Shown: positions 4,111 to 56,329 of the stretch, one piece after another
How the letters are laid out: each line of letters begins with the position of its first letter
Position numbering within the stretch: position 1 is the first letter of the stretch
Assembly (NCBI RefSeq): GCF_963921235.1
Contig: NC_086097.1
Location: 77,006,001-77,070,000 of the forward strand
DNA: 64,000 nucleotides
Direction: 5' to 3'
Source: Mobula hypostoma
Lineage: Eukaryota
Program-made: the position numbers and the translations under genes
The notes under the pieces: model-generated
What the model was told of the DNA's origin: nothing
Seen by the model: only the letters and a program-made list of their open reading frames with translations
Databases searched by the model: none

Positions 4111-4311
4111 GTGAGAATTATAAAACAAAAGCCAAGTTTAATGTCTTAGCATTTTTAATCTTGAATGATCTGAAAAATTATTGTAAAGATTTATGTGAAA
4201 TTAGTAATAGCTTGAAAAAGTAGATCCAAACATTTTGTTTTTTATCATATATTGTAAATAGGATTATAGACTTTGGATAAAATCCACTTTGTCAAACATG
4301 ACATAACTTCA

Positions 4312-4535
4312 AACGCAAACAGGAATTCTGCAGATGCTGGAAATTCAAGCAACACACATCAAAGTTGCTGGTGAACGCAGCAGGCCAGGCAGCATCTGTA
4401 GGAAGAGGTGCAGTCGACATTTCAGGCCGAGACCCTTCGTCAGGACGAAGAGTCTCGGCCTGAAATGTCGACTGCACCTCTTCCTAGAAATGCTGCCTGG
4501 CCTGCTGCGTTCACCAGCAACTTTGATGTGTGTTG
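4312..4535. mobile_element. Palindromic mini-copy of a Penelope-like element 3' end (hammerhead-bearing, Neptune-type family)
   Basis: Inverted arms about 4349-4441 and 4444-4536. 15-bp TSD catgacataacttca at 4297-4311 and 4536-4550. Same sequence as the 3' UTR of the PLE at 50355-51652. Confidence 0.85.
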
Positions 4536-5940
4536 CATGACATAACTTCAGTTGCGTTGAATCAACTATCAATTCTAGATTGATTGACATATGCTTGTTG
4601 GTTTATTCCTCCAGTTTTTTACGAGTGTTATATCCTCCAACTCTCTATTTGATTTATATTTAAGAAAGTTCAAAAGATGATAGTGGTATTTGGCCCATTT
4701 TAGTGTATTGATCTGTAGAGATACTGGTCTCACACCAACCACATCCAACGTTCTGGTAAATTATTCATCTTCCATGCTTAATTAACTGAAACTTTCATCC
4801 ATATTTTCATTGTTCTTCCTGTGAACAAAGTTTCCTGAAACAAAACTTAAGTTTACCAAAATATGATTGCATCCTCAAAAATAAAGAAAATGGGAACCTG
4901 GAGGGAATCCATTTGAATCATCATGCTTATGCTAGGTCACTAGGTATCTTATTATAGCTCTGAAAGTATTTCTCTTTCCAGTGTCTATTTTTTTATTATC
5001 ACAGAATCTACTTCCACCACCGTTTTAAGTTAATGGATAACTGATAAATACTGGCATTGCAGTTGATGTCCATATCCTGTGAACAACTCATTGAAAACCC
5101 AAGCCACTTGTCCTGACATCCCTACCCTCTCACTAATATACTGCACTCACTCAAAAAAAATTATATTGCTCTTTTTGTTTTTCCTGACAATTGTAAAGTA
5201 ATATTTAGTATTTTGTCTATTATTATTTCACTTTCTAAATTTACCTGTATGTCTACCTTCCTGAGGTGTGTTGTTGCATTTCTCATTATTAACTAACTTT
5301 AGTACTCTTGATAAATATTAAAAATATTGAAATTATGCCCTGTATATTCAACCCTTATCATTAATATGTACCATGAAGTGCAAGATTCAATTTTCAGCCT
5401 GGGAGACAGTAGTGCTTATTTAAAGACAAAATTGCTGGAAACTCAGCAGATCAGGCAACATCTGTGGAGAAAGAAACAAAGTTATTTTTTCAGTTTGAAG
5501 TCCTTCATCAGAGCATTAACTGTTTCCACAGAAGCTGTAAGTCTTCTTTATTTTCCTCCAGTTTTAAAAGCTTCTTATCACTACTACCTGCATTTTCATT
5601 TAGTCAGTTTTGTATACAGACTTCTATGGTGTCTACTTCCCACAGCTTAAATTTTCCTAATGCCTTTAAATAAGGATTTCATCAAAATGTCTTCTGTAAA
5701 TTGAATGGTGCAGTATCAACAGCATAATGTTCAACTGCCTATTACCCTGCTTAATCACTCAATCAATGTATCAAGCACAATATGCTTTCAACAAACCTGT
5801 ATTGACAGGCCTGAGAAAAATACCTGCCAGATTTATCACACTTCCTTTCATTCAGAAGTGCTGGATTATTTGCAATCTTCTTGACCTACAGCAATTTCTA
5901 GAGAGAATTGCATGATTGAAGAGATTTAATTTATCCTTTC

Positions 5941-6136
5941 ACGAGGAAATCTGCAGATGCTGGAAATTCAAGCAACACACGTAAAAGTTGCTGGTGAACG
6001 CAGCAGGCCAGGCAGCATCTCTAGGAAGAGGTACAGTCGATGTTTTGGCCCGAGACCTGACGAAGGGTCTCGGCCCGAAATGTCGACTGTACCTCTTCCT
6101 AGAGATGTTGCCTGCCCTGCTACAGTCATAAGCAAT
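5941..6136. mobile_element. Palindromic PLE mini-copy (same family)
   Basis: Inverted arms around 6055. 16-bp TSD tttaatttatcctttc at 5925-5940 and 6137-6152. Confidence 0.82.
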
Positions 6137-6833
6137 TTTAATTTATCCTTTCCATAGTTTTACTTAATTGGTTGTGACCATATTAGATCATCTTATTTCA
6201 AGTCTGAACGGGGGTAAGAATCTGGTGGTGTGGAGTCCACAAAATAGGATATAAAATACATGAGCTGGAGGAATTCCAACTGCCACATTATTGAAACCAG
6301 AACAAGAGGTATTCAGATCTTGAATCTGAAAGAGGCACTAGGTGTGGCTTGATACTCACATAACAAAATCAAGCAGTTCTGATCGCAGCTCAAACATCAA
6401 GAAAATCAATCTTTCTACATCCTACCCACCTGATTTGAATATAACTGCTAAGGTTAATACCAAGTTATTTCTGATGAATTAAATTTACCCAAGTGTAGGT
6501 TAATCTAACAAAATTACTTATACTCCTGCTGGTTTTATGAAGAGCGTAAGTAAGATACTATCTGCAATTTCTGAGTTACATGTCCTCCCCTATCACAGTC
6601 TGTTTTCTTCAGATCTTTGTCACTTCCATCTATTGTTCCCAGTTTCTTCCATCATTCCTCCACCACCTTTGTGAACAGCTATATAACTTGCATTTGTAAT
6701 GTAGACCTTATTCTGGCTCATCAATTAGTGCATTTCCTTTGGTTTGTATAGTACCTGGACAGAATTTGAAAGGTCAGAACTCTTTATTTGGCATTGCACT
6801 ATGTTAAAACTGTTTTTCATTTCTTTCATGTAG

Positions 6834-6977
<144 letters not shown>

Positions 6978-7888
6978 TAATGTACATACCATCACCTTTA
7001 TTTTGCATAATTATACACCTTAATTTTTTTTATTCACAAAAGGAAGGTACTGTCACTACGGCTACTCTGCAGTTGGGAGTTTCTGGATTTTGAACGAGTG
7101 ATGAGAAAGGGCTGACTCCTTATGACCCAAGTAGCACTTTTGGCGTACAGGCTAGGGGGTTGTAACTCACTGTTAGCTCTGTCTTGGTGAATTGCTGCAG
7201 TGAATTTTATCAGTGCTTTAGAATGCACCCATGCTGTGTAGATAATGAGAGTGTGTCAACGTGGGAACTCTGTTTAACATGATGTTTCAAGCTTTGTGTG
7301 TTGTTGAAAAGTACGCTCATCCAGACATGAGTTTTCCAAGACACTCCTGATGTAACATGAAGATGTTGGTAAAGCGTTGGGAAGTGCAGAACTGACCTGC
7401 TGTTAAAGTTGTATATTCACATTGCTGATAGTTATATTTCTGATTTCTGGGATATTAATGAACTGCCTTATCATTTTAACAGTGGTAATGCCTAGAATGT
7501 CAAGAAGTGGGATTGAAGGCACATGTATCGTATCTTTGCTTACACCTGCCTGAGTCTGATCTTAGCTCAGGCCTTGCCACACATTTGTGCAGTTGCTTTT
7601 TTACCTTGGGAATTGTGAATGCAAGTGGTTATCCTGCAATTATCAGCGAGAGCTCACTTTTTGGCATAATTGTGCTGAAATTGCTGTAGAAATGCATTTC
7701 CAGAATCGTGCAAAGCCCAGAAAAGTAAAGTGGGTAATTTAACTGAACACCACAGCAATATCTCACTCAGTTTTGATCCTTAGATCAGCTTAATGTACTT
7801 CGTGCTGCTGAGGCAGAATTCACATTATATAAGTTTGCTTCAAACAGTCACCAGTTTGTTCCTGAGTTATAATAAATATAATTACATA

Positions 7889-10104
7889 CAGTACTGTGCA
7901 AAAATCTTAGGCACATACTGTACCTACAGCAAGCGTGCCTAAGACTTTTGCGCAGTACTGTCTTTGCCAACGTGGAGAAGAACGAGTTTGTAAGTCTGGC
8001 GGGAGCAAAGGATGTTGGGAATAGTGAGGGTGCAGTGCTGGGTGAGGGGTGTGGGACAGGTGGCAGAAGAGGAGTGCTGGGGCAGGGGGTGGTGCGGGTG
8101 CAGACACACCCACCCTTGAGACACCAGGCAAGGTTATTTGATTTCAAACAATTGGTTCATTGATCATTACAGAATGTCCCTCTGGTGTTTCCTGCTCTCT
8201 CCCCTCTCCCTATCCTCTTTCCCACTCTCAGCCCATAATAGAGACCGATATCAGAATCATGCTTATCATCACTCATATATGTCATGAAATGTTTTTTTTG
8301 GGCAGTACAATGCAATACATTAAATTACTACAGTATTGTGTAAAAGTCTTATGCATCATAGAGACATAGAAATCTACAGCACATTGCAGGCTCTTTTGCC
8401 CACAATGTTGTGCCGACCATGTAACCTACTCTAGAAAGTACCTAGAATTATACAGTGGCATGCAGAAGTTTGGGCACCCCTGGTCAAAATTTCTGTTACT
8501 GTGAATAGTTAAGTGAGAAGAAGATGAACCGATCTCCAAAAGTCATAAGTTAAAGATGAAACTTTTTTTTCAACATTTTAAGCAAGATTAGTGTATTATT
8601 TTCGTTTTGTACAAGTTCTGAGTGGAAAAAAAAAAGGAAAGGAGCACTATGCAAAAGTTTGGGCACCCCAAGAGATTTGAGCTCTCAAATAACAAGGTCT
8701 CAGACCTTAAATAGCTTGTTAGGGCTATGGCTTGTTCACAATCATGGTTAGGAAAGGCCAGGTGATGCAAATTTCAAAGCTTTATAAATACCCTGACTCC
8801 TCAAACCTTGTCCCAACAATCAGCAGCCATGGGCTCCTCTAAGCAGCTGCCTAGCACTCTGAAAATTAAAATAAATGATGCCCACAAAGCAGGAGAAGGC
8901 CATAAGAAGATAGCAAAGCGTTTTCAGGTAGCCGTTTCCTCAGTTCGTAATGTAATTAAGAAGTGGCAGTTAACAGGAACGGTGGAGGTCAAGTTAAGGT
9001 CTAGAAGACCAAGAAAACTTTCCGAGAGAACTGCTCGTAGGATTGCTAGAAAGGCAAATCAAAATCCCCGTTTGACTACAAAAGACCTTCAGGAAGATTT
9101 AGCAGAATCTGGAGTGGTGGTGCACTGTTCTACTGTGCAGCAACACCTGCATAAATATGACCTTCATGGAAGAGTCATCAGAAGAAAACCTTTCCTGCAT
9201 CCTCACCACAAAATTCAGCATCAGAAGTTTGCAAAGGAACATCTAAACAAGCCTGATGCATTTTGGAAACAAGTCCTGTGGACTGATGAAGTTAAAATAG
9301 ACCTTTTTGGCTGCAATGAGCAAAGGTATGTTTGGAGAAAAAAGGGTGCAGAATTTCATGAAAAGAACACCTCTCCAACTGTTAAGCACGGGGGTGGATC
9401 AATCATGTTTTGGGCTTGTGTTGCAGCCAGTGGCACGGGGAACATTTCACTGGTAGAGGGAAGAATGAATTCAATTAAATACCAGAAAATTCTGGAAGCA
9501 AACATCACACGGTCTGTAAAAAAAAAAAGCTGAAGATGAAAAGAGGATGGCTTCTACAACAGGATAATGCTCCCAAACCCGCCTCAAAATCCACAATGGA
9601 CTACCTCAAGAGGCGCAAGCTGAAGGTTTTGCCATGGCCCTCACAGTCCCCCGACCGAAAGATCATCAGAAATCTGTGGATAGACCTCAAAAGAGCAGTG
9701 CATGCAAGATGGCCCAAGAATCTCACAGAACCAGAAGCCTTTTGCACGGAAGAATGGGCAAAAATCCCCCAAACAAGAATTGAAAGACTCTTAGCTGGCT
9801 ACAGAAACCGTTTACAAGCTGTGATACTTGCCAAAGGGGGTGTTACTAGGTACTGACCATGCAGGGTGCCCAACCTTTTGCTTTGGGCCCTTTACCTTTT
9901 TTGTTATTTTGAAACTGTAAAAGACGGAATCAAGAAAGTAATCTTGCTTAAAATATTAAAGAAATGTGTAATCTTTAACTTTATGCCTTTTGGAAATCAA
10001 GTCATCTTTTACTCGCTTAGCTATTCACAGTAACAGAAATTTTGACCGGGGTGCCCAAACGTTTGCACACCACTGTATATGCCTCACACTTTTGCACAGT
10101 ACTG
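7889..10104. mobile_element. Non-autonomous Tc1/mariner-type composite element with four TIR copies (hosts the Tc1 below)
   Basis: TA|cagtactgtgcaaaaatcttaggcac at 7889; inverted copy ending 7960; third copy at 8331; inverted copy ending 10104|TA. Confidence 0.7.
8453..10075 (+). mobile_element. Tc1 (DD34E-type, IR/DR) DNA transposon, full length, defective transposase
   Basis: TA TSDs at 8451-8452 and 10076-10077. TIRs cagtgg...tttgggcacccc with internal DRs near 8651 and 9864. Transposase 8829-9856 (WTDE, QQDN) with a frameshift in the A-run near 9520; expected IENLW reads IRNLW. Confidence 0.93.
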
Positions 10105-10652
10105 TATTTCATATACAGATCCTGTATGTAACATAGTTTATTGTCCAGATGTTATCCCCAATCATGTTAAATTTTGTTTTGTTTCTGATGCCACTATTGT
10201 ACCATCCACTTTCAGTATCATATTATTTAGTTATAATTCTCTTTTATTAGCACTTAGTATCATTAAGTATATATTTTCAATTTCCTCTCCCTCCATTTCC
10301 ACATGGAGTTTTAGATGGGATATAATTCAAAACCTACAAGCAACCTTGCGTTATCTTCCATCTCTGCGATCATCTGCAAACCATGAATTAATCACATGGG
10401 GATATTCAAACACATGCTCATATCTCATAATGTAGGAACACTTGCTGACTTCCACATATCCAACCCAGGAATGGTAAAACAGGCAACAGAATACTTAATG
10501 GACCTTGAAACTGCAGCACTGATTCAAAGAATGACTCACTTTTTGCCATTCTGACTTAATTCAATGCTCCCTACCTTTACAACACATTTAAGTCTTTGTC
10601 AATGCAGACAAACACCAACAAGATTATGGCAATGTTCTTTTTTTCATTTCAG

Positions 10653-10809
10653 TGCTATTTGTTCCACATGTATGTGGGTGTAAGAGCTGGAGGTGGCATT
10701 GGAGATGAAATTGAAGACCCTGCTGGTGATCCTTCAGAAATGTACCGAATCATCTTTGACATCACATTCTTCTTCTTTGTCATTGTCATCCTACTAGCCA
10801 TTATTCAGG
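10653..10809 (+). CDS. RYR3: RYR3 pore exon ([53 protein letters not shown])
   Basis: tttcag| ... cagg|gtatgt; 157 nt; GGGIGD selectivity filter plus the inner helix. Confidence 0.97.
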
Positions 10810-11606
10810 GTATGTTTTCTTATTACAAGGAAAACTTGAGAAAGAATTTGTTTTCAATAATCACTTCATGGAAGAGTTGTCTGATCAGTTTTATTCACTC
10901 TTCACCTTTGCACAGAGTTGCATCAAATTTCTACCATGGTTCCTTATTTTTAAATATCCAGCATATAATGTAACATTCCCAGCATACACTTGGACTCCTT
11001 TGGCGGTGCTGGTCTACTTGTCATAGAGGAAACAGGAACACTGAGAAAAGTTCAAAAATATATGTGAAAATGACAGTAGAAATGGGGGATGGGGGTGGGA
11101 TGATTGGGCTTTGCTCTTCTCTCTGGAAAAGACTGGGATTTCCTGTTAGTTGTTTTAAAGAGTATTCCAGTTCAAAGGTTTCTAAATTACAAAGATACAA
11201 AAGTGACTGCAGGTTCTGGAAATCTGGAGAAACACAAAATGCTTGAGCAGGTCAGGCAGCATCTATGGACAGAAATATTATAATCAGTCAAAGTTTTGGA
11301 TCAAGACCCATCATCGAGGCTGAAATTACAAAGAGATTTTGTACAGATTGTGCCCATCAAAATGGGTCCAACATGTTAATGAAGATATTATCTCAATTAA
11401 TTGTGACAGTTAATTCTGTGCTTTGAGCAAACCACTTGGTATCAGACAATGTCTATTAACGTTAAGTCAAATTTCATTTGATTTTGGTGACAAAATGTTG
11501 CCTCTTCTCACGAACATGTAATTTCTGCATTTGAATGAGTGTATGGTATTAGTGCCATGTAATCCATAAACAGCCAGTAAATTGCTTATGCTATGACTTT
11601 CTGTGA

Positions 11607-11720
<114 letters not shown>

Positions 11721-13830: not shown

Positions 13831-14552
13831 GAGAATATCTCGTGAAGGGAACTACTCATTACTGACATTGGGATGATCAGCCTAAAGTGGAGAGACAATG
13901 GCATGCTCTGATAAATTACTGTTGGAAATATATTTAGTCTGATTCCAAGTCACAGCTATCAGAAGCTTTGATCTGCATTTTTCTAAGTGAACTAAATTTG
14001 ACTTCTGAAATTAATGCTATAAATGAGCTGCCACATCAATTTAGGACATTTCATATTTGTGCACTTTTGAGTGCTGTTACCATCAAAACAGAAGTGGAAA
14101 ACTGGCTATTGTGAGGAAAGTAGCTGCCTGGCAAACAGCAGGCATTATTAGTATCAACAGAGATGGGTTTCAAAATAAAAAGGCAAATGAGAGAGATTAG
14201 CATGACAATTGTGGCCATTTCACTGCTCTTGCCAGCAAAGTGATGCACATAAAAAGTGCTCAGTGTCATACAGTGTCATATAATCAGGACAGAAATGCAT
14301 CATCATCCCATTGCACCCCATATGTTCACAATGTATTAAAGCACCAAGCATAGTAATTTTTTTCAATTGTTGGTCAAGTTCTAGCAGATAGAATACTGTT
14401 ATTTCAAACATTAAATTCATATTGCCAGGTTATATCAATTCATTTTTTTTACCTCCTTGACTTAAATTGACCTCTAAGCATCTGATCCCAAGGGACGCTT
14501 TTTAGGCAATTTAACGGCTCGCTGCTGTTAAAGGCCTTCAATGGCACAACAG

Positions 14553-14715
14553 GTTCTGCAGATGCTAGAAATCTTCAGCAACACACACAAAATGCTTGAG
14601 GAACTCGGCAAGTCAGGTAGCATCTATGGAGGAGAATAAATAGTCAAAGTTTGGGGGCGAGACCCTTCATAGATACTGTCTGACTTGTTGAGTTCTTCTA
14701 GCATTTTGTGTTTGT
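14553..14715. mobile_element. Older, degenerate palindromic PLE 3' mini-copy
   Basis: tctgcagatgctag...gagacccttcat followed by an inverted gatactgtctgacttgttgagttcttctagcattttgtgt. Confidence 0.55.
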
Positions 14716-15049
14716 TACTAAAGGCCATCAAACTGCTTTTCAAGAAAAACTGAACAGGTAATAAGGGGGCTCTAGCCAGAGGGAGTCGTGGAAGCAGGTA
14801 CAAAAGGGAGCTGAGTAAATATCTTCAAGAACCTCCAAGACGATGAAAGGAGAGGTGAATTGCATATATTGCTCTTGAACAGCACTGGTATTGATTTAAA
14901 AGGAGGCCATTTGACCTGTTGACATGTTACTTTTCTGAGATGCTCGCTGCAGCCACAATTTTCTTCATTTTTATCTCTTTGAACCTGCATTTTGAAACCA
15001 TATAACTGACGTATCTTTTTAAGTAGCCAAGCTCCACCTCATGAATTGA

Positions 15050-15910: not shown

Positions 15911-16005
15911 ATAAGTATTAAGCACCATGTCATGAGCAGAAAGGAGCTACGGGATGCAGTTTGTGCAAACTGACTGGAATTAAAAACATTTTTATTATCT
16001 TTCAG

Positions 16006-17292: not shown

Positions 17293-17319
17293 TTAACTAA
17301 AAATGAAGAGGGGAACAGC

Positions 17320-21581: not shown

Positions 21582-24107
<2,526 letters not shown>

Positions 24108-30675: not shown

Positions 30676-30799
30676 AACATACATAAAAGTTGCTGGTGAA
30701 CGCAGCAGGCCAGGCAGCATCTCGAGGAAGAGGTGCAGCCGACGTTTCAGGCCGAGACCCTTCGTCAGGACTAACTGAAGGAAGAGTGAGTAAGGGATT
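30676..30799 (-). mobile_element. PLE 3' mini-copy inside the CR1
   Basis: 13-bp TSD tcatattataaac at 30663-30675 and 30800-30812. Confidence 0.85.
30737..30772 (-). ncRNA. Minimal type I hammerhead ribozyme motif (intact core)
   Basis: Minus strand agtc-CTGACGA-agg gtctcgg cct-GAAAC-GTC-ggct; stem I has one G-U pair. Confidence 0.7.
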
Positions 30800-32903
30800 T
30801 CATATTATAAACCTTTGTTTCCCGGAATCATTCTTGTGAACCTCCTCTCAACCCTCTCCAATGCCAGCACAGCTCTTCATAGATAAGAGCCCAAAACTGT
30901 TCACAATATTCAAGATGAGGCCTCACTAGTGCCTTATAAAGCCTCAGTATCACACCCCTGTACTTATATTCTAGTCCTTTTGAAATGAATGATAACATTG
31001 CATTGGCCTTCCTTACCATCGACTCAATCTGCAAGTTAACCTTTAGGGTGTTCTGCACAAGGACTACCAAGTCTCTTTGCGTTTCAGATTTTTGGATTTT
31101 CTCCCTATTTAGAAAATAGTCTGCACATTTATTTCTTCTACCAAAGAGCATGACCATGCATTTTCTAACATTGTATTTCATTTGCCACTTTCTTGCCCAT
31201 TCTCCTAATCTGTCTAAGTCCTTCTGCAGCCTTTAAGTCTCCCTATTACAGCAGAGATGATCCAAAGGCAAACCAGAAAAGACCCCACACTGTCTCAGGT
31301 CTACATGGCGACCCAAAATGGCTGGAATGTGCTGCAGAAATTCCAGGTCGCCCATTTTCACCAGCACGGGAAGGAATCTGCTCTTGACAGGTGTTGCCTT
31401 GTGTGGGGATTGAGAGTTGTTCTACCATCCAAGCTGAGAGCTAAAGTGCTGGAGGGACTATACGCCGATCATATAGGTGTGGTCAAAATGAAAGTGTTGG
31501 CTTGACCCTTTGTCTGGTGGCCTGGTATGGATCAGCATATCCAGCAGCTTGCCGTGCATTGTCCGAGATGGCAACTTGTCCAGAAGATGCCAACAGTAGT
31601 GCCTCTCCATCTCTGGGAATGGCCTGCATTGCCCTGGCGGAGGAATCATGTCGGTTTACTGGATCTTCCGTTAAGATGGCGGCACATTTGGGTCCTGTTG
31701 CAGCAGCTTCTAGGGGGTCAACAAAAGGTGCCACTGTCCTATTTAAATGTATTTTTAATGATCGCAAGATCCTGCTACACATTAAGAACTTAAAGGACTG
31801 CAGGTCTACCACATCAGTGAATTGCTCGCTACCAGAGAAAATGAAGGAGCTGTGTGATGTGCTGCTGCCTGAGTCAATGGAGGTTTACAGTCTAACAGCA
31901 AATGGCCGCCATGGTTGCTTTTCTTGTGATTGCAAGACCCTTTTGGACATTGTTAATGTGGTATGCTGCAAGTTTGATTTACTGATTTACTGGCAGACAG
32001 CAGTGGCAGATGGCGGGGGAGCTGTGGGGCCCCAGCCATAGCGAGGCCAGAAGTGTTCCCAATAGCCCCCACTAGGGCCTCACGCCACTGATAATGTTGA
32101 GAAGCCTCTCCTCAGGGACTGGTTGTCAGTAACAATGGACCACAGATAGCTGCAAAACAGTTTCAGCCATTCCCGAAAATGACTGGAATAAGACCTATTA
32201 CATCTGCACCATACTACCCAGCTACAAATGGCCTGGCAGAAAATTTTGTTTAGAGTCTAAAGAATGCTCTGCGATCAATGTCAGCAGAACACCCTACACT
32301 GACACTGAATCAGAAGCTCGTCAATTTCCTATTTGCATATCTCAGTGCAGTACACTCCACAACCAATAACTCACCAGCTCTGCTGCTCCTGGGTCGTCAC
32401 TTGTGCTCACACTTGTATCTCCTCAAACCTGATCTCAGAAGGAGTATGCAGGACCAACAGCTGAGACAAATTGAGAGCTCCTCAAACAAGGAGTTTCGAT
32501 GTTTCACTCCTGGCAAGGGACTACCTAGGTGATCAAAAGCAGGTACTTGGAAAGATTTAAGTTCAGAACTTGACCACTCTCACCACTCTCCTGCACAGTG
32601 GAGAATGTGTCTGATGTCATCTGGAGACAACACATCGTTCAGTAGAGGAGAGCAGAGTCAACTGTTAGAGAAGAAAGAGGTCCAGAGCTGTCAGAACCAC
32701 TGCCTATAGTCCCAGAGTTTACTCCTACAATCACCATGGAGGAGGCCCCAGAACCTGAGATTGTTTCACAGCCACAAATCTTACCTGCCAAGCAGAGTTA
32801 CCCTCCACCCCCTTGTCAGTAAGGACATTATCCCACAAGAGTAAAAAATCTTGCACTGCGATGAAATCTTCATGCCTGAATGGGACAATTTAAAACTTAC
32901 TAT

Positions 32904-32944
32904 AAAAGTTGCTTGAATTTCCAGCATCTGCAGAATTCCTGTTG
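32904..32944 (+). mobile_element. 41-bp PLE 3'-tip insertion
   Basis: gttgcttgaatttccagcatctgcagaattcctgttg flanked by tttaa(a/g)acttactat at 32889-32903 and 32945-32959. Confidence 0.7.
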
Positions 32945-33349
32945 TTTAAGACTTACTATGCTGTGTTTGTCTATATAGTCATGGTATTATATAGTATACA
33001 GTGTATACAGAGAGCAATATGTTATATATTTGAGCTGAGATGCATTCCATATCGAGATGATAGCTAGGCAGGAAATGTGTAAGCGCATATTTGAGTAATA
33101 TTTTAGGTATGTTGTTTGATTAAGCATCCTTTGTTGTTTACATAATTCATTTTGAGTTATATATAAGTATGTGAATGGCATATGTTATTATACCACCTTG
33201 TCACATGTCTGCACCTCACCAAAGAAGAAACTAAGTAGACACCATCACAGCTCCTGTGTTTTCCTTTTGATATAGTTTCTGGGGTTACAAAACATAAGTT
33301 CAAAGTAATTTTATTATCAAAGTACACATACAGTATGTCACCATACAGA

Positions 33350-33949: not shown

Positions 33950-34168
33950 CACACATCAAAGTTGCTGGTGAACGCAGCAGGCCAGGCAGCATCTGTAGGA
34001 AGAGGTGCAGTCAACGTTTCAGGCCGAGACCCAGTCTGACGAAGGGTCTCGGCCTGAAACGTCGACTGCACCTCTTCCTACAGATGCTGCCTGGCCTGCT
34101 GCGTTCACCAGCAACTTTGATGTGTGTTGCTTGAATTTCCAGCATCTGCAGAATTCCTGTTGTTTGCG
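33950..34168. mobile_element. Palindromic PLE mini-copy
   Basis: Inverted arms around 34032. 14-bp TSD tataaaacaatcga at 33936-33949 and 34169-34182. Confidence 0.87.
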
Positions 34169-35019: not shown

Positions 35020-35560
35020 AGGGACTGGATGGTTGGCTGTTTTGCTGATCACCCCCATACAATATGCAAAGGTGATCCTGCGCTTTCAATTTCCAGTCAC
35101 TTTAATTCTCTAACCCCTCTCACACTACATCTGTCATTGGCTCCTCACCCAGTTCCAGCAAAGCTTAATGTTATCTTGAGGAAGAGCATCTCATCTTCAA
35201 GTGAAGAACACTGCACATCAGTATTCAACATCAAATTTAACAACTTTAGATAAATATTGCACCTCATTTCCAGCTCTTGGTTATTTTTACCCCATTTCTC
35301 CTGTTCTTGTTTGTCAGATTCGATCTGTTGTCCCCATTTAAGCCTCATTTTAACGTATATTTGTTGTTTGTTTTCAGTCACCACTGGCACCATCACCACT
35401 GTATCTTGTGACCTCCACTATATAGCAAGTGTTCCCTTCTGCTCCACCCTTCACCTTCTCCGCATATTCTTTTCTAACTTTTCTCAACCTGAAACATAAA
35501 TTCTGTTTCTCTTTTCACAGATACTGCTGAGTACCTCCAGATTATTTTATTTCAGATTTC
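35020..35560 (+). mobile_element. Old Neptune-type PLE remnant (GIY-YIG C-terminus and 3' UTR)
   Basis: Decayed equivalents of RFAEH, HFNS, LEEEHLIF and NIKFNNFR*, resembling the end of ORF 50745..51701. Confidence 0.55.
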
Positions 35561-42589: not shown

Positions 42590-43395
42590 GGAGCAAGAAG
42601 TGAGTTCCTCAAAGAATTCAGAAGGTCAGGCAGCATATGCAGAGGGAAATGCATGTTTTAGGTTTCAATACCCATCATTTGTATTGAAAGAGTAGAAAGA
42701 AGATTGGTAGTATAAACAGGTAAGAGGGAGAGGTAAGGCAAGAACTGACATGTGATAGCTGGATCTAGGTAGAATGGATGTTTGGCAGATAGAAACATAG
42801 AAAACCTACAGCACAATACAGGCCCTTTGGCCCACAAAGTTGGGTCAAACATGTCCCTACCTTAGAAATTACTAGGCTTACCCATAGCCCTCTATTTTTC
42901 TAAACTCGATATACCTATCCAAAAGTCTCTTAAAAGACCCTATTGTATCTGCCTCCACCACCGTTGCCGGCAGCCTATTCCACGTATTCACCACTCTCTC
43001 CGTAAAAAACTTACCCGACATCTCCTCTGTACCTACTCCCAAGCACCTTAAACCTGTGCCCTCTTGTAGCAGCCATTTCAGCCCTGGGAAAAAACCTCTG
43101 ACTATCCACACGATCAATGCATCTCATCATCTTATACACCTCTATCAGGTCACTTCTCATCCTCTGTCGCTCCAAGGAGAAAAGGCCGAGTTCACTCAAC
43201 CTGTTTTCATAAGATAGAATCAAGTCGGGCAGGGGAAATGTAGATATAGTAATGGAGGTTGAGAGGAGACAAGTGAAAGCAACAAAGGGCAGTAGATTAT
43301 ATCTATTTCCTTCCATAGATGCTGCCTGACCTGTTGAGCTCCCTCAGAAACTCATATTTTGCTCCAAATTCCAGCATTTGCAGGTTCTTGCATTT
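42590..43395. mobile_element. Old inverted PLE 3' remnant interrupted by a CR1 3' fragment (about 42789-43212, - strand)
   Basis: PLE-like ends ggtcaggcagcat... and ...atgctgcctgacctgttgag. Internal CR1 peptides LGLFSLERQRMRSDLIEVYK and FFTERVVNTWN. Confidence 0.65.
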
Positions 43396-43916: not shown

Positions 43917-44402
43917 CTGTAATAAAACAAAGGCATAATTAAGCCTGACAAATACTAGTTACATTTCAATTCACAGAAATCTTTTTCTATCAATCATACA
44001 TGTCAAACAGTAATCACATTCTAAACACAAGAGATTCTGCAGATACTGGAAATACAGAGTAACACACACAGAATGCTGGTGGAACTCAGCAGGTCGACTT
44101 TACGGGCTGAGACCCTTCAGCAGAAATCACATTCTTACTATCTCACATAAATGGGGAATAGAATCATTGATCTTACATAAAATTATATTAAAAAATAATG
44201 ATTTTAAAATATCAGTTGATTATTTTACAAATGTACATAATTATCCTACAATGTTGAAATGTTACCTAAAGCATACAGTACTTTTATATTGAAATTTAAT
44301 TTCAATTTCCAAATTGAAACATTATTTTAAAATTTGAATTCTAAAAGGCACATTAGTACAATCTGGCAAAAAGGTTTTGAAATATTATCTCCTATGAGAA
44401 AG

Positions 44403-46474: not shown

Positions 46475-49020
46475 ATAGTCATAGAGTCATAAAACACTAC
46501 AGCATACAAACAGGCCCTTCAGGCCATCTAGTTCATCCCATCGACCTGCACCCAGACCACGGCCCTCCGTACCCTTCCCATCCATGGAATTGAATAGAAA
46601 TCCAAATTTCTCTTCTATGTTGATATCAAACTCACACCCACCACTCTCACCACTCTGAGTGAAGACTTCCTCCTCATATCTTATTTACATCTTTCCTGTA
46701 GGTAGGTGACCAAAACTGCACACAGCATTCCAATCTAGGCCTCACCAACATCTTGTACAATTTTAACATAACATTCCAACTCCTGTATTCAATACATTGA
46801 TTTATGAAGGCCAATGTGCTAAAAGCTTTCTTTATGAACCTATCTATCCGTGGAATTAGGGATCTGCATGCACAGATTTCTCTGTTCTACTGCACTCTTC
46901 AGTGCCCCATCGCTCACCGTATAAGACCTGTCCTAGCTTGACCTCCCAAAGCACAAGATCTCACACTTGCCTGCATTAAGTTCCCATTTTTCTGCCCATA
47001 TTTCCAGCTGGTCCAGATTCTGCTGTGTGCTTTAATAGTCTTCCTCACTACACCCCCCATCTTGGTGCCATCCACAAATTTGTTGATCCAGTTTACCACC
47101 TTATCACCCAGACGATCGATATAGATGACAAACAACAACGGAACCAGCAACAATTCCTGCAGCACACCACTATTCATTCACAGGTCTCCAGTTAGAGAGG
47201 CAACCATCTACAACCACTCTCTGGCTTCTTCTGCAAAGCCAATGTCTAATCACATTTACTACCTCCTCTTCAATGCCAAACAACTGAGCCTGCTTGACTA
47301 ACCCCATGTGGGACCTTGTCCATGTAAACAATACCTACTGTCTTGTCTTCGTCAACTTTCCAGGTAACTTCTTTGAAAAACTCTCTAAAATTGGTTAGAT
47401 ATGATTTACCACACACAAAGCCATGTTGACTAACCCGAATCAGTCCCATATTCTAATGGAGGTATTCTAAGGGACTGGAGGTATAAGTTTTAAATACTTA
47501 TATATCCGGTCCCTTAGAATACCTTCCAATAACTTTCCCACTACTGATGTCAGGCTCACCGATCTATATCTTCCTGGGTTCTTCTTAAAAGCCTTTCTTA
47601 AACAATGGAACAACTATCCTCCAATCCTCCGGCACCTCACACATGGCTTAAGATGTGCAATTTCTGCACTAATCTTCCACGGGGTCCAAGGGAACACCTT
47701 GTCAGGTCCTGGAGATTTATCCACCCTAATTTGTTAAAAGACAGCAAACACCTTCTCCTCTGTAATCTGTATGGTGTCAACTACTTCACTGCTGCATTGC
47801 TTCACATCTATAGACTGTGTCTATTTCCCAAGTAAATACAATGCAAAAGATCTCCCCATCTCTTTTGGCTTCATGCATAGGTTACTAGTCTTATCTTCCA
47901 GAGGACCAACTGTGTCCCTTGATATCCTTTTGACCTAATGTATCTGAAGAAGCCCTTAGCATTCTCCTTCACATTGTCTGCTAGAGCAACCCCATGTCTC
48001 CTTTTATCTCTCCTGATTTTCTTAAGTGTTCTCTTGCATTTCTTATACTCAAGTACCTCACTTGTTCCTACCTGCCTTTACCTGCTTTCCACCTCCTTCT
48101 TTTCCTTAACCACGGCTTCAATATCTCTCGAAAACCAAGGTTCCCTACACCTATTCTCCTTGCCTTTTATTCTGACAGGATCATATAAACTCTGTACCCT
48201 CAAAATTTCACTTTTGAAGGTCTCCCACTTACCAAGTACACCTTCGCCTGAAAACAGTCTGTCCCAATCCTTCTCCATAATTATCTTGAAATTAATGGCG
48301 TTATGATCACTAGATGCAAGGTGATTCCCCTTCATGACACAATGGTGACACAAACTTCCATCACCTGCCCTGTCTCATTCCCTAATAGGAGATCAAGTAT
48401 CCCCCCTCTCTCTAGTTGGGACTTCTATGTACTGATTAAGGAAGCTTTCCTGAACACATTTGACAAACTCCTTCCCATATAGCCCTTTTACAGTATGGGA
48501 CTTTCAGTCAATATGTGGAAAGTTAAAATCACCAACCATCACAACTTTATGTTTCTTGCAACAGTCTGTGATCTCTCTACAAATTTGTTCCTCTAAATCT
48601 CGCGGACTGTTGGGTGGTCTTTAATATAATCTCATAAACATGGTCATACCATTTTTATTCCTCAGTTCTACAAATGAGGCCTTACTAGACAAGTTTGCCA
48701 GTCTGTCATGACATTTTCCCCGACTAGTAAGATCACTCCTCTTGCTCTACCATGTCTAAAACAACAGAACTCTGAAGCATTGAGCTGCCAGTGCTGCCCT
48801 TCCTGCAACCCTCACTAATGGCTACAATGTCATAATTCCACGTGCTGATCCATGCCCCAAATGCATCGTCTTTCCTACAATACCCCTTCTGTTGAAATAT
48901 ATGCAGCTGTGAACGTTAGTCCCACTGTGCTCAACGCTTTGATTCCTGACCTTGTATGTAGGCTTATCAACCACTCCACTAGTTCTGGTGCTCTGTTTCC
49001 CATCCCTTTGCAATTCTAGT
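46475..49020 (-). mobile_element. CR1 LINE, decayed, with internal deletions
   Basis: Fragments SSDHNAINFKIIMEKD, PLLFVIYID...WINKFVD, CIYFN; tail catagagtcata. Confidence 0.8.
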
Positions 49021-49094
49021 TCTATAAACGCCCTGCAGGTCAGGCCATGTTGAGGGGGAGAGGGAGGGGGAGAGGGAGAGGTTAATACTGAGAT

Positions 49095-49640
49095 GAGGAA
49101 CTATGCCACTCCTCATCCCATTCCCACTCTGGTCTCTCGGTTTTTGATTTCCTGTACTGTTACAATGAAGCCCAACGCAAGGCTTGAGGAACACCTCTGG
49201 GTACTTTGCTGCCTTGTAGCCTCAATAATGAATTCATTTACTTCAGGTAACTTGATTTCCCTGTCTGCATCAGTCATGCAGCTGGAATAATATCTCAGCT
49301 TTTTTCCCCCTTTCTTCCTCTCTCTGGGAGTGGAGAACATCCCCAGCCTGACCTGCTGGGCTCCTGCTCTGCATTTCACTTTTGGAAAATGTTCTCACAC
49401 TCTAACCTCCCATCCACTCATTGCGCAGCTAACCTTATTTACAGCTGATCACGTTGTCAGTGACATTCTTTCTCCCCAACCCTCCCTGTAGCTCTAAAAG
49501 CTATTTTGTCTCCTTCCCAGTTCTGACGGACACCGCTTCAAGGGTCTAAAACGTTGACCCTGTTTCTCTATCCATATTTGTGGCCTGACCTGCTGGGTAT
49601 TTCTGGCATTTTATGCTTTTGATTTAGATTTCCAGCAACT
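49095..49640 (+). mobile_element. Old PLE remnant
   Basis: cactcctcatcccattcccactct...aggcttgaggaacacctc (RLEEH-like), a degenerate ctgacg...aaaacgttgac core, and a tail cctgacctgctg...agatttccagca. Confidence 0.5.
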
Positions 49641-50354
49641 GGAGTTATTTGATTTTCTTACAAATTATGTTTGCTTTTGAGATTTGTAGAATATTCTTGC
49701 ATTTTCTATACTGGCAAGTCATCAATTTCAAGAAAAGTTTCTTGACTCATATTACAAGGAAAGGTCAAGAGCCAGGAAAGGTCAACACCACTATGTTCCT
49801 ACTTAATCATTTTCATATTTTTGATAATATATATAGAACACAGATTAGATATATTGAACATAGCAACCTCACAACATTGGTTGGCGGATTGGTGTCTTCT
49901 TTTTATGGAAGCTTGTATGGCATATAGCTCCAGGTTTACATTCCAAATGGGTTTTTTTTCCCTTTTTTTTGTTATCAGGGTTTTTTTTTCTATTCTAGTT
50001 AGTAGGAGTTCTTTTTTTTTCTTTCTTTCCTTTCTTCCATTAAAAAAAAGCTTTAACTGTTTTTTATTATTATTGATATACTGTTCAGCTTGGTTGATAG
50101 TTTAACTCTTATTCTACATTTAGATATGTCTTGATTATTTTGATGCATTTTTCTCTGTTGTTGATTTTCAATAGTAATTAATAAAATGATTTAAAAAGAA
50201 AAAGAAATGCCTCTTAAACCCTGCTATCATATCTGCTTTCACCACCTTTCCAAGCAGCATGTTAGAGACACCTACCACTTACTGCACTAAAAAAAATTGC
50301 TTCAGAAAACACTCTAAAATTTCCCCCTCTCATCTAAAAGTGATGCCCTCTAGT

Positions 50355-51652
50355 AATATACATCAAAGTTGCTGGTGAACGCAGCAGGCCAAGCAGCATC
50401 TATAGGAAGAGGCGCAGTCGACGTTTCAGGCCGAGACCCTTCGTCAGGACTAACTGAAGGAAGAGTGAGTAAGGGATTTGAAAGCTGGAGGGGGAGGGGG
50501 AGATGCAAAATGATAGGAGAAGACAGGAGGGGGAGGGATAGAGCCGAGAGCTGGACAGGTGATAGGCAAAAGGGGATACGAGAGGATCATGGGACAGGAG
50601 GCCTAGGGAGAAAGACGGGGGGGGGGTGACCCAGAGGATGGGTAAGAGGTATATTCAGAGGGACAGAGGGAGAAAAAGGAGAGTGAGAGAAAGAATGTGT
50701 GCATAAAAATGAGTAACAGCTGGGGTACGAGGGGGAGGTGGGGCCTAGCGGAAGTTAGAGAAGTCAATGTTCATGCCATCAGGTTGGAGGCTACCCAGAT
50801 GGAATATAAGGTGTTGTTCCTCCAACCTGAGTGTGGCTTCATCTTTACAGTAGAGGAGGCCGTGGATAGACATGTCAGAATGGGAATGGGATGTGGAATT
50901 AAAATGTGTGGCCACTGGGAGATCCTGCTTTCTCTGGCGGACAGAGCGTAGATGTTCAGCAAAGCGGTCTCCCAGTCTGCGTCGGGTCTCACCAATATAT
51001 AAAAGGCCACATCGGGAGCACCGGACGCAGTATATCACCCCAGTCGACTCACAGGTGAAGTGATGCCTCACCTGGAAGGACTGTTTGGGGCCCTGAATGG
51101 TGGTAAGGGAGGAAGTGTAAGGGCATGTGTAGCACTTGTTCCACTTACACGGATAAGTGCCAGGAGGGAGATCAGTGGGGAGGGATGGGGGGGACGAATG
51201 GACAAGGGAGTTGTGTAGGGAGCGATCCCTGCGGAATGCAGAGAGAGGGGGGGGAGGGAAAGATGTGCTTAGTGGTGGGATCCCGTTGGAGGTGGCGGAA
51301 GTTACGGAGAATAATATGTTGGACCCGGAGGCTGGTGGGGTGGTAGGTGAGGACCAGGGGAACCCTATTCCTAGTGGGGTGGTGGGAGGATGGAGTGAGA
51401 GCAGATGTACGTGAAATGGAGGAGATGCGTTTAAGAGCAGAGTTGATAGTGGAGGAAGGGAAGCCCCTTTCTTTAAAAAATGAAGACATCTCCCTCGTCC
51501 TAGAATGAAAAGCCTCATCCTGAGAGCAGATGCGGCGGAGACGGAGGAATTGCGAGAAGGGGATGGCGTTTTTGCAAGAGACAGGGTGAGAAGAGGAATA
51601 GTCCAGATAGCTGTGAGAGTCAGTAGGCTTATAGTAGATATCAGTGGATAAG
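50355..51652 (-). mobile_element. Neptune-type Penelope-like element, 5'-truncated (RT thumb, Zn-finger linker, GIY-YIG endonuclease, 3' UTR with hammerhead)
   Basis: STDIYYKPTDSHSYLDYSSSHP (ORF 51172..51768). Frameshift in the G-run 51247-51254 into CKWNKCYTC...GVIYCVRCSRCGLLYIGETRRRLGDRFAEH...LEEQHLIF (ORF 50745..51701). Confidence 0.92.
50416..50451 (-). ncRNA. Minimal type I hammerhead ribozyme motif (intact core)
   Basis: agtc-CTGACGA-agg gtctcgg cct-GAAAC-GTC-gact: stem I agtc/gact, stem II agg/cct, self-complementary ACGT in place of stem III. Confidence 0.75.
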
Positions 51653-51720
51653 TGCTTCCTTTCTGTAACATGACAAGAGGACTGCACACAATATTCCACA
51701 CGCAGCCTAAGTTTTATACA

Positions 51721-51823
51721 AGCAACACACATAAAAATTACTGGTGAATGCAGCAGGCCAGGCAGCATCTATAGGAAGAGATACAGTCGACGTTTTGGGC
51801 CGAGACCCTTCGTCAGGACTAAC
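51721..51823 (-). mobile_element. PLE 3' mini-copy (hammerhead GAAA mutated to AAAA)
   Basis: 7-bp flanking repeat ttataca at 51714-51720 and 51824-51830. Confidence 0.75.
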
Positions 51824-52002
51824 TTATACATTTGCATTAGATTATATACGGCAAATGAAAGATTCTTGGAGTACATAGAAGCCTAGATAATCCAAAAGGC
51901 ACAGTTAATCACACCTCATAAAGGATATAATGTTGAGAAATCTTATCCAAACAGAATATGATCGAACCACCCTCAGATTTCAAATGAACTGAAGTGTTTC
52001 AG

Positions 52003-52416
52003 ACCTCCACGAGGACCACAACCTTGTCGCGGTTTGGAGGCTTGCATACCTCAGTGAACTATGCTGGGTGGAGTCAGGGTCTTATGCTTTGGCTCTTGCT
52101 AGAATCACCCATGCCAAACAGGTCAAAGGGTACAGGCCAGACTGAGAGGTCCACCAGACCTTCAGGGGTGGGAGTTCAGCTTGGGGTTAACAACCCTGAC
52201 CAGTAAAACAACACTGTTATGGAAACAGCAATGAAGGATGCTCCTACATCTGAGTGCGACCGTATTCCTGAGTCTCCGCCTGGAATTTGCACGACTAACA
52301 GTAGTGAAAACCGAGAGGAAGCTACTGACACGATAAAGGAAATCCTGAACACCACCAGAGATGGGAGAACCTTCATTGTTACCCTAAACACCAGTGGCAT
52401 AATGGGCAGTAAGTAG
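52003..52416 (+). mobile_element. RTE-derived non-autonomous/SINE-like element
   Basis: 5' part ccacaaccttgtcgcggtttggaggcttgc resembles RTE/BovB 5' UTRs as I recall them; 3' end gggcagtaagta. Confidence 0.5.
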
Positions 52417-55047
52417 GAAGTGTTTCAGAGGGCATTTCTCTAAACAATTCCTGCTGTACCAATGACATAGCAAGGAAGAGTGAGGAGGTCCTGGACAGTG
52501 AGTATAGAGAGCTTGGTAGGAAGTTGAAAAGCAGGACCTCGAGGGTGGTAATCTCAGGATTGCTACCTGTGCTAGGTGCCAGTGAGGGTAGGAATAGGAT
52601 GCTCTGGAGGAGGAACAAGTGGCTGAGGAACTGGTGTAGGGGGCAGGGTTTCAGATTTCAGGATAATTGGGACCTCTTCTGGGGCAGGTGGGACCTGTAC
52701 AAGAGAGACAGGTTACACTTGAACTACAGGGGGACCAATATCCTTTCAGGGAGGTTTGTTAATGCTATTAGGGGGGCTTTAAACTAGATTTGCAGGGGGA
52801 TGGGAACCACAGTACCAGAGCTGACAGTGTGGCTGGGGTGAAAATAAATGATGTTAAAAGTTCAAGCAAATCCGCTAATAGAAAGGTTGTGAGTGGTGGT
52901 AAAAACCTTCTGAGGTGTATATATTTCAATGCTAGGAGTATTGCGGGGAAGGCGGATGAGTTGAGGGCGTGGATTGTCACGTGGAATTATGACGTTGTAG
53001 CAATTAGTGAAACTTGGCTACAGGAGGGGCAGGACTGGCAGCTTAATATTCCAGGGTTCCGATGTTTCAGATGTGATCGAGGCAGAGGAATGAAAGGTGG
53101 GGGAGTGGCATTGCTTGTTAGGGAAAATATTACAGCAGTGCTTAGGCAGGACAGATTAGAGGGCTTGTTTACTGAGTCCTTGTGGGTGGAGCTGAGAAAC
53201 AGGAAAGGTATGGCCACATTAGTGGGATTGTATTACAGACCACCCAATAGTCAAAGAGAATTGGAAGTGCAAACCTGCAGAGAGATAGCAGGCAACTGCA
53301 GGAAACATAAAGTTGTGGTGGTAGGGGATTTTAATTTTCCATATATTGATTGGGTCTCCCATACTGTTAGGGGTCTAGATGGTTTAGAGTTTGTAAAATG
53401 TGTTCAGGAAAGTTTTCTAAATCAATATACAGAGGGACCAACTAGAGGGGATGCAATATTGGATCTCCTGTTAGGAAACGAGTTAAGACAAGTGACAGAA
53501 GTCTATGTAGGGGAGCACTTTGGTTCCAGTGATCATAACACCATTAGTTTCAACTTGATCATGGACAAGGATAGATCTGGTCCTAGGGTTGAGGTTCTTA
53601 ACTGGAAGAAGGCCAAATTTGAAGAAATGAGAAAGGATCTAAAAAGCGTGGATTGGGACAAGTTGTTCTCTGGCATGGATGTGATCGGTAGGTGGGAAGC
53701 CTTCAAAGCAGAAATTTTGAGAGTGCAGAATTTGTATGTTCCTGTCAGGATTAAAGGCAAGCTGAATAGGAATAAGGAACCTTGGTTCTCAAGGGATATT
53801 GCAACTCTGATAAAGAAGAAGAGGGAGTTGTATGACGTGTATAGGAAGCAGGGAGTAAATAAGGTGCTTGAGGAGTATAAGAGGTGCAAGAAAATACTTA
53901 AGAAAGAAATCAGGAGGGCTAAAAGAAGACATGAGGTTGCCTTGGCAGTCAAAGTGAAGGATAATCCAAAGAGCTTTTACAGGTATATTAAGAGCAAAAG
54001 GATTGTAAGGGATAAAATTGGTCCTCTTGAAGATCAGAGTGGTCGGCTATGTGCGGAACCAAAGGAAATGGGGGAGATCTTAAATAGGTTTTTTGCGTCT
54101 GTGTTTACTAAGGAAACTGGCATGAAGTCTATGGAATTAAGGGAAACAAGTAGTGAGATCATGGAAACTGTACAGATCGAAAAGGAGGAGGTCCTTGCTG
54201 TCTTGAGGAAAATTAAAGTGGATAAATCTCCGGGACCTGACAGAGTGTTCCCTCGGACCTTGACGGAGACTAGTGTTGAAATTGCAGGGGCCCTGGCTGA
54301 AATATTTAAAATGTCACTGTCTACAGGTGAGGTGCCAGAGGATTGGAGAGTGGCTCATGTTGTTCCGTTGTTTAAAAAAGGATCGAAAAGTAATCCGGGA
54401 AATTATAGGCCAGTAAGTTTAACGTCGGTAGTAGGTAAGTTATTGGAGGGAGTACTAAGAGACAGAATCTACAAGCATTTGGATAGACTGGGACTTATTA
54501 GGGAGAGTCAACATGGCTTTGTGCGTGGTAGGTCATGTTTGACCAATCTATTGAAGTTTTTCGAGGAGGTTACCAGGAAAGTGGATGAAGGGAAGGCAGT
54601 GGATATTGTCTACATGGACTTCAGTAAGGCCTTTGACAAGGTCCCGCATGGGAGGTTAGTTAGGAAAATTCAGTTGTTAGGTATACATGGAGAGGTGGTA
54701 AATTGGATTAGACATTGGCTCGATGGAAGAAGCCAGAGAGTGGTGGTAGAGAATTGCTTCTCTGAGTGGAGGCCTGTGACTAGTGGTGTGCCACAGGGAT
54801 CAGTGCTGGGTCCATTGTTATTTGTCATCTATATCAATGATCTGGATGATAATGTGGTAAATTGGATCAGCAAGTTTGCTGATGAAACAAAGATTAGAGG
54901 TGTAGTAGACAGTGAGGAAGGTTTTCAGAGCCTGCAGAGGGACTTGGACCAGCTAGAAAAATGGGCTAAAAAATGGCAGATGGAGTTTAATACTGACAAG
55001 TGTGAGGTATTACACGTTGGAAGGACAAACCAACGTAGAACATACAG

Positions 55048-55185
55048 TTAGTCCTGACGAAGGGTCTCGGCCTGAAACGTCGACTGTACCTCTTCCTAGA
55101 GATGCTGCCTGGCCTGCTGCGTTCACCAGCAACTTTTATGTGTGTTGCTTGAATTTCCAGCATCTGCAGAATTCCTGTTGTTTGC
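55048..55185 (+). mobile_element. PLE 3' mini-copy inside CR1 ORF2
   Basis: 13-bp TSD gtag(a/g)acatacag at 55035-55047 and 55186-55198. Confidence 0.88.
55050..55085 (+). ncRNA. Minimal type I hammerhead ribozyme motif (intact core)
   Basis: agtc-CTGACGA(55054-55060)-agg gtctcgg cct-GAAAC-GTC-gact; predicted cleavage after 55081. Confidence 0.75.
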
Positions 55186-56329
55186 GTAGGACATACAGGG
55201 TTAATGGTAAGGCACTGAGGAGTGCAGTGGAACAGAGGGATCTGGGAATACAGATACAAAATTCCCTAAAAGTGGCATCACAGGTAGATAGGGTCGTAAA
55301 GAGAGCTTTTGGTACATTGGCCTTTATTAATCAAAGTATTGAGTGGAAGAGCTGGAATGTTATGATGAGGTTGTATAAGGCATTGGTGAGGCCGAATCTG
55401 GAGTATTGTGTTCAGTTTTGGTCACCAAATTACAGGAAGGATATAAATAAGGTTGAAAGAGTGCAGAGAAGGTTTACAAGGATGTTGCCGGGACTTGAGA
55501 AACTCAGTTACAGAGAAAGGTTGAATAGGTTGGGACTTTATTCCCTGGAGCATAGAAGAATGAGGGGAGATTTGAGAGGTATATATAATTATGATGGGTA
55601 TAGATAGAGTGAATGCAAGCAGGCTTTTTCCACTGAGGCAAGGGGAGAAAAAAACCAGAGGACATGGGTTTAGGGTGAGGGGGGAGAAGTTTAAAGGGAA
55701 CATTGGGGGGGCTTCTTCACACAGAGAGTGGTGGGAGTATGGAATGAGCTGCCAGACGAGGTGGTAAATGCGAGTTCTTTTTTAATATTTAGGAATAAGT
55801 TGGACAGATACATGGATGGGAGGTGTATGGAGGGATATAGTCCGTGTGCAGGTCAGTGGGACTAGGCAGAAAATGGTTCGGCACAGCCAAGAAGGGCCAA
55901 AAGGCCTGTTTCTGTGCTGTAGTTTCTATGGTTTCTATGGTCTATGTTCCATCTATTCATTTAAGGAGTTTCTCAAATACATGCAGCACACAGGATATAA
56001 ATATCTAACCACCTCTGATTTTACTGGAACTGGCCCCATTAGTTAGACTCACCCTTCTTTTGAAAATTGGTTTGAAGTAGATTAAAGGGGCACCTAGGGA
56101 CTTGGTGAATGATGGTACCAGTATTTCATCACCTTAACCATTAAGACTGAAGGATAGTGAAAGAAACAAATAAAGAAGAGTAAATTATACTGAAACTAGA
56201 TACAGAGCGAAATAAAGAGGGGGGAAAGAAGGAGTGGATTAAAATGCTAAGAGACAAAAAAACACTTGAAAACTTTACAGAGACAAAAATAACCCTGAAA
56301 ACTTTACAGTTAAGATTTTTCAAAAACAG

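Follow-up and report, generated by a model that had tools for sequence, protein, structure and literature searches.

Clustering of the 5' ends of short Penelope-like element insertions beside a predicted hammerhead ribozyme in a 64-kb window of Mobula hypostoma

Endonuclease-bearing Penelope-like elements (EN+ PLEs) of the Neptune/Nematis type are defined by a zinc-finger-like CX2-5CxxC linker between reverse transcriptase (RT) and endonuclease (PMC8557442). Canonical EN+ PLE units contain pseudo-long terminal repeats (pLTRs), an adjacent inverted 5'-truncated copy and a 30-40 bp tail (PMC3846280, PMC8557442). Metazoan PLEs carry minimal type I hammerheads, with dual motifs on opposite strands also noted (Cervera and De la Pena 2014, PMC4209133). 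For PAc, the Poseidon element of Anolis carolinensis, in vitro work described by Frangieh et al. (2024, PMC11167929) showed that the protein nicks and extends both target strands and that RT starts at two adjacent internal sites, giving the tail. The RNA must contain sequence past these start sites, and products extend to the template 5' end. The PLE transposition cycle, the role of the hammerhead and intron retention are named as open questions in PMC8557442 and PMC11167929. Here, a family of short PLE insertions was analyzed in 64,000 nucleotides of repeat-rich Mobula hypostoma DNA (contig NC_086097.1, positions 77,006,001 to 77,070,000; GC 40.7%), referred to as the window. The 5' ends of these insertions cluster at the upstream edge of the hammerhead core, and this cluster is almost certainly real.

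Positions in the element are numbered from the C of the core CTGACGA as +1, with zero omitted, and cleavage is predicted after +28. The seven stubs of one PLE 3' end listed in the original prediction, copies A to G, were all recovered by blastn together with a long copy (82-100% identity over 40-135 nt; Table 1). These eight insertions, with 12 arms, form the young set. The flanking direct repeats of 7-16 bp described for the stubs were likewise recovered as target-site duplications (TSDs). Exact repeats of at least 11 bp arose in 0.2% of 1500 random flank pairs. The TSDs of A-E and G are far beyond chance; only the 7-bp repeat of F is weak taken alone, because at least 7 bp arises in 5.9% of such pairs. 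The description of the family as hammerhead-bearing does not extend to D, a tiny fourth inversion built of the tail and 11 inverted bases. Similarly, A, B and E are inversions near the core, but the supposed long palindromes are asymmetric, with one full core each. The 3' ends fall into two classes about 40 nt apart, +79..+96 (seven arms) and +123..+135 (five arms). Variants C34/G84 are common to A and E, and T34/C20 occur in B as in F.

Table 1. Positions of PLE copies and hammerhead-associated features in the window
Feature	Position	Strand or form	Structure and ends	TSD
Copy A	4312..4535	inversion, head-to-head	tailed arm minus, -3..+1 to +134; tail-less arm plus, +3..+6 to +94; axis 4441-4446, 3-nt microhomology	15 bp (4297-4311/4536-4550)
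Copy B	5941..6136	inversion	tailed arm minus from +10..+12; tail-less arm plus from -1..+2; 2-nt microhomology at junction	16 bp (5925-5940/6137-6152)
Copy C	30676..30799	-	tail-less; 5'-truncated at -32/-31, outside cluster	13 bp
Copy D	32902..32947	micro-inversion	inverted +76..+86 (11 bases) joined to tail +91..+130 via GCAAC/GTTGC 5-bp stem; ends +76..+81 and +91..+96; hammerhead-free	15 bp, 1 mismatch
Copy E	33950..34168	inversion	tail-less arm minus from +9; tailed arm plus from -4..+1	14 bp
Copy F	51721..51823	-	tail-less; 5' end -8/-7	7 bp
Copy G	55048..55184	+	tailed; 5' end -9..-6 (CAG common to target)	14 bp, 1 mismatch
Long 5'-truncated PLE copy	50353..51652	-	RT thumb, C-x4-C-x2-C linker, frameshifted GIY-YIG endonuclease, 3' untranslated region of 300 nt rich in pyrimidines, hammerhead, tail-less end	
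Predicted minimal type I hammerhead of long copy	50415..50451	-	helix I AGTC (-4..-1)/GACT (+29..+32), core at 50447, 3-bp helix II	
Branch-point-like motif, pyrimidine tract and two AG acceptor-like sites	50449..50470	-	CAG -9..-7, TAG -5..-3; zone where 5' ends stop	
o5	5426..5537	inversion	forward arm minus from about -2; short inverted arm	none found
o11	11197..11322	-	stub starting at CAG directly before degenerate core	12 bp
o14	14542..14718	inversion	tailed arm from about +4; short tail-less arm	13 bp, 1 mismatch
o44	44023..44124	-	stub from -2..+4	11-15 bp

Five of the eight young insertions start within -9..+2, and all eight clustered young arm ends lie within -9..+12. For five of eight ends in any 14-nt interval, the scan statistic was 0.0002-0.03 in simulations under six smooth nulls, run with starts of +98 and +135 that differ slightly from the measured ones. 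A profile scan of the window yielded eight older related ends (four more matches, with E above 0.05, were left out). Three of these (o11, o44 and o5) start within -9..+2 and o14 starts at +4. The other four lie off the core: three extend upstream, as judged by pyrimidine content and weak tblastn matches, and one begins 3' of it. With the interval fixed from the young set, the older set alone (three of eight) is only suggestive because p is 0.02-0.13, a conservative bound. Widening the interval to +4 after o14 had been seen gives four of eight and p of 0.005-0.05. Tested against a bound that covers every non-increasing density of lengths, the pooled young and old insertions (8 of 16 in -9..+2) give p between 2e-5 and 2e-3. 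Most copies of any retroelement are short, and a few ends near one spot could mean nothing, the more so as the sample is small, the interval was picked after the data were seen and the older set reaches only the p values given. Against this, the scan statistic, the pooled bound and a pile of loose contig ends in two species make a chance grouping barely credible. The claimed clustering at the upstream edge of the core was thus borne out, with statistics that beat smooth truncation.

The loose ends came from contigs of four public runs (two DNA and two RNA-labelled, the RNA status being a guess; two related organisms), which were compared with 50340-51240. In both DNA runs, the largest pile among the 24 of 3552 rows listed, which leave some ends uncounted, fell at -4 (470 contigs with a median loose length of 99 in one run, 461 with 175 in the other; letter agreement 0.39-0.40). 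The pile is confounded because the 3' untranslated region (UTR) of a sister family diverges at the same base; a rough mixture estimate with assumed match rates puts that family's share at 15-33%. Summed contig depth in run X1, which is not copy number, was 6.4-7.6M at the hammerhead end, 1.7-4.5M over the 3' UTR and 2.2-4.0M at -390..-760, a step followed by a plateau. No contig among those listed spans the compared stretch, and the list of molecule ends was empty. Short copies were also found in two RefSeq Mobula proteins, from about -7 (XP_072132000.1) and about -12 (XP_062913069.1) at codon resolution; model P0024, which begins at about +30 just after its start codon, was left out of this count. 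The host-protein search with the other reading frame gave none. RefSeq Mobula models P0023, P0024 and P0025 read a PLE stub as coding (a STARD3NL isoform, a coenzyme A synthase and an uncharacterised protein), reflecting either exonisation or an annotation artefact. When metagenome, viral and prokaryote collections were scanned for patterns, 199 loci came up with a longest similarity of 24-32 nt, all taken as chance.

The identity of the element was read from the long copy, whose 5' end lies at about -1205. No TSD was found at its flanks, and the 40-nt tail is absent. The cysteine linker sits in the 50745-51713 frame and the RT-thumb frame lies upstream of the endonuclease, for which the Pfam GIY-YIG match (E 2e-4, 21.9 bits) is slightly below the 22.6 cut-off. 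In the endonuclease region, identity is 95% with a predicted protein of Mobula hypostoma and 77-88% with the best Hypanus proteins. The Mobula protein has the RT catalytic motif, and the core RT is missing from the window copy. As in EN+ PLEs, RT is followed by a GIY-YIG endonuclease at the C terminus with the linker in between, and inverted 5' copies occur with an optional 30-40 bp tail, seen here as two 3'-end classes. On the basis of this domain layout and the identity to the Mobula and Hypanus proteins, the element is assigned to the EN+ PLEs of rays, Neptune type.

From its motifs, the long-copy hammerhead is classed as minimal type I and predicted to be a ribozyme. It has CUGANGA, helix II, GAAA and NUH; helix I is short and a true helix III is missing. 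PLE identity and hammerhead type therefore agree with the original prediction. The core, the short helix I and the palindromic remnant of helix III match the layout in PMC4209133; helix II here has 3 firm bp, and breakpoint clustering is not reported in the accessible text of that paper. An Rfam search did not match the hammerhead. Weak Rfam matches of A and E to microRNA hairpins, below the gathering threshold, reflect palindromy and were discarded.

All five inversions whose ends could be resolved (A, B, D, E and o14) combine one tailed and one tail-less end (chance 0.027). The two classes correspond to the known tail, traced to two RT start sites in PMC11167929. Junction microhomology of 2-5 nt is present in A, B and D, and the E junction shows three bases matching upstream sequence and one missing C. 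In copy B, bases -1..+9 are present in the tail-less arm and missing from the tailed one, and the tail is found only in the tailed arm. As each arm has bases that the other lacks, neither was copied from the other. These reciprocal gaps and the non-overlapping arms of D require two priming events. They conflict with the self-priming by which PMC3846280 explains palindromes of rotifer PLEs, and with the simple fold-back originally proposed for these stubs. A single complementary DNA (cDNA) that primes itself at the inverted repeats of the hammerhead and copies itself would suit the axis of A, a perfect fold-back with a 2-nt loop, and the variants common to both arms of each palindrome. Nevertheless, it is impossible for B and D and leaves the fixed tail-less end unexplained. 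Moreover, the arms of A differ at +46, a copy-variable site (one site, which could be a later mutation). Fold-back of a single cDNA is thus highly improbable.

It had also been suggested that the stereotyped hairpin of about 200 bp spreads by itself as a non-autonomous master element, like a short interspersed element (SINE) or a retrozyme. Copies A, B and E are alike in size and TSDs, three copies are compatible with many separate masters, and non-autonomous PLE derivatives exist (PMC8557442; bioRxiv 10.64898/2026.07.22.740005). In run X17, a strand-change joint at -3/+40 (50408/50450) was present in one RNA contig at a high mean depth of 1673; this may reflect either a junction type that recurs often or an artefact of assembly. 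However, all three junctions (A, B and E) differ, and the different variants of A/E and B indicate different sources; both variant sets recur in non-palindromic copies. No single junction with shared private variants was found among the three window palindromes, and the second RT start site is where the inverted arms of these copies terminate. Retrozymes are tandem units each with a hammerhead, and no head-to-tail arrays were found in the window. As RNA, E is predicted to form a duplex of -185 kcal/mol with the core buried in about 80 bp. Every stub base maps to the PLE end, so the stubs have no added Pol III head. Because junctions and sources differ, the core is buried and head-to-tail arrays are missing, a master hairpin or retrozyme is unlikely, and spread of the hairpin as a SINE-like unit can be given very little credence. 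The palindromes were likely made afresh at each insertion, without a new self-spreading element.

A pathway by analogy with PAc (PMC11167929) would account for both forms. The endonuclease would nick both target strands, and both would prime RT at the two internal start sites. Joining of two short cDNAs by microhomology would give a palindrome (A, B and E), and keeping one cDNA would give a plain stub (F and G). In L1 twin priming, an inverted 5' segment is found with a TSD and microhomology at the inversion point. Copy D has this classic non-overlapping form. By contrast, both arms of A, B and E cover one region, each copied from its own fixed start site, and two templates or two repeat copies are therefore needed. 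On this analogy, truncated ray PLE insertions would somewhat more probably than otherwise have arisen by two-sided priming, with short cDNAs that stop at a template boundary and are joined by microhomology.

The stop itself lies in an acceptor-like sequence. Between -23 and -3, a branch-point-like motif is followed by a pyrimidine tract and then by two AGs, and we take both AGs to match a splice-acceptor and an initiator-like consensus. RT starting near the 5' end of the element RNA would copy 95-140 nt before stopping within -9..-3 against a template boundary, formed either by the RNA 5' end or by the splice acceptor. Trimming during joining would spread the ends to +12. On a monomeric transcript, a complete start site would be available only near the 5' end, and short run-off cDNAs are therefore expected. 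A joint 50450/50796 was seen in the two RNA-labelled runs, from two organisms, at depths of 75.6 and 83.7, and in neither DNA run. It allows GT-AG placement from the C-terminal end of the endonuclease into -3/-2 in helix I, as 7 of 760 partner sites would, and is a lead to a candidate splice into the hammerhead edge. Two of the 13 listed skips are canonical, both RNA-only; the second, 50842/51039, was in one RNA run. The intron of D. virilis Penelope ends at the 5' end of helix I (PMC4209133; Schostak et al. 2008, PMC2377424), and the accessible text of these two papers describes no vertebrate PLE case.

Several other causes were discarded. None of the 12 young arms starts at +26..+35 around the cut site (+28/29), so cleavage is excluded as the main cause, in agreement with the original view that self-cleavage does not explain the breakpoints. 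PAc is similar in that cleavage is not needed and no RNA ends at the cut site (PMC11167929). A stop at a lariat branch point was ruled out by the lack of ends at -18..-23. So was microhomology alone, inverted 4-mers being equally common at +20, +70, +90, +110 and the core. Copying of a spliced template into an upstream exon left no such sequence at nine core-edge junctions.

The stall at the folded ribozyme first proposed is one of two live explanations. With two-sided priming on a continuous template, RT would stall either within a hairpin formed by -19..+12 or where the two RTs meet at a hammerhead that is dimeric or bound by protein. This predicted alternative hairpin (50428-50466, minus), in which the pyrimidine tract is paired to the core and to helix II (5' strand), encloses all eight clustered young arm ends. 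The minimum free energy of -20..+35 is -14.6 kcal/mol compared with -5.4 kcal/mol for helices I and II alone, and the hairpin is predicted to outcompete the hammerhead helices in unspliced RNA. The ends of copy D lie in a different stem-loop, minimal hammerheads are presumed to work as dimers (PMC4209133), and protein assists the PAc ribozyme (PMC11167929). However, the hairpin, at about -10 kcal/mol, is a modest obstacle, and the ends gather at its loop and far side, not at the entry side. Stronger hairpins at -575..-640 are passed by RT, as the depth plateau suggests, although this weighs weakly. A stall at helix I predicts ends at +29..+33, and none is there. Stalling is thus a possible but less probable cause, and a template boundary is preferred.

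Two-sided priming with a template boundary has several points against it. The cluster was assessed on 16 insertions from one window, the ends of C (-32) and D (in a different stem-loop) fall elsewhere, and the sister family diverges at the very base of the loose-end pile. The joint 50450/50796 is one contig per run, annotated 'between: not known', with a weak donor and guessed RNA status. The window copies carry no upstream-exon sequence, though a spliced template should sometimes leave some. The segment -25..+35 ranks in the top 7% of the element's local folds by stability, which fits stalling equally well, and the source for two-sided priming (Frangieh et al.) concerns a Poseidon and not a Neptune-type element.

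Splicing into an AG acceptor would remove the hairpin-forming pyrimidine tract. A bolder and rather unlikely proposal is that an acceptor at the 5' edge of helix I was kept from Drosophila Penelope to the ray Neptune-type element as a switch, in which splicing unmasks a ribozyme silenced by the intron pyrimidine tract and RT is blocked at the processed-RNA boundary. If so, processed RNA would give only strong-stop-like stubs of 100-140 nt and palindromes, and unspliced RNA would give long copies. This would account for PLE intron retention and would make the stubs a map, across the genome, of where the RNA boundary lies.

Earlier papers already describe the architecture, namely 5' copies in inverted orientation, palindromes at the junctions, the tails and the minimal hammerheads (PMC3846280, PMC8557442, PMC4209133). 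The copies resemble canonical EN+ PLE units in head-to-head arms, junction palindromes, a tail at one end, TSDs and microhomology, but the whole unit is only 40-225 bp and its breakpoints lie at the hammerhead edge. PAc shares the nicking and extension of both strands and the two adjacent start sites that define the tail; it belongs to the Poseidon clade and was studied in vitro, and 5' ends of its genomic copies are not mapped in the accessible text (PMC11167929). Metazoan non-LTR (long terminal repeat) retrozymes (PMC7229834; bioRxiv 10.64898/2026.07.22.740005) are also short, non-coding, hammerhead-bearing and PLE-related. They are, however, head-to-tail tandem repeats with a hammerhead per unit, whereas the stubs are scattered copies, either single or head-to-head, none of which has more than one full core. 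No new class of element is shown. New from this window are the logical case for two-sided priming, from B and D, and the splice-acceptor lead. A full-text literature search found no paper on clustering of PLE 5' ends at the hammerhead or on PLE twin priming; its scope stopped short of subscription papers, figures (including Fig. S2 of PMC11167929, which may bear on this) and bioRxiv supplements. Thousands of sharp-5'-edged stubs would record, like fossils, the points at which cDNA synthesis stops in vivo. The stubs speak against self-cleavage and for two-sided priming with a helix I boundary, a model open to direct testing.

At 49110-49650, 35041-35541, 42591-42780 and 22334-22540, older remnants of PLEs show weak traces of GIY-YIG or UTRs rich in pyrimidines; this 3' end is common to several PLE families of differing age. 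A 125-nt inverted repeat (22037-22161/22648-22772; 82% complementary, 486 nt apart) surrounds a weak GIY-YIG trace and is possibly an old PLE with inverted ends. At 43210-43392 (plus), an older PLE end begins 3' of the core after a purine-rich stretch of about 80 bases that may be 3' UTR in inverted orientation. Copy G interrupts a long fragment of a long interspersed element at 52930-55700, presumably CR1-like.

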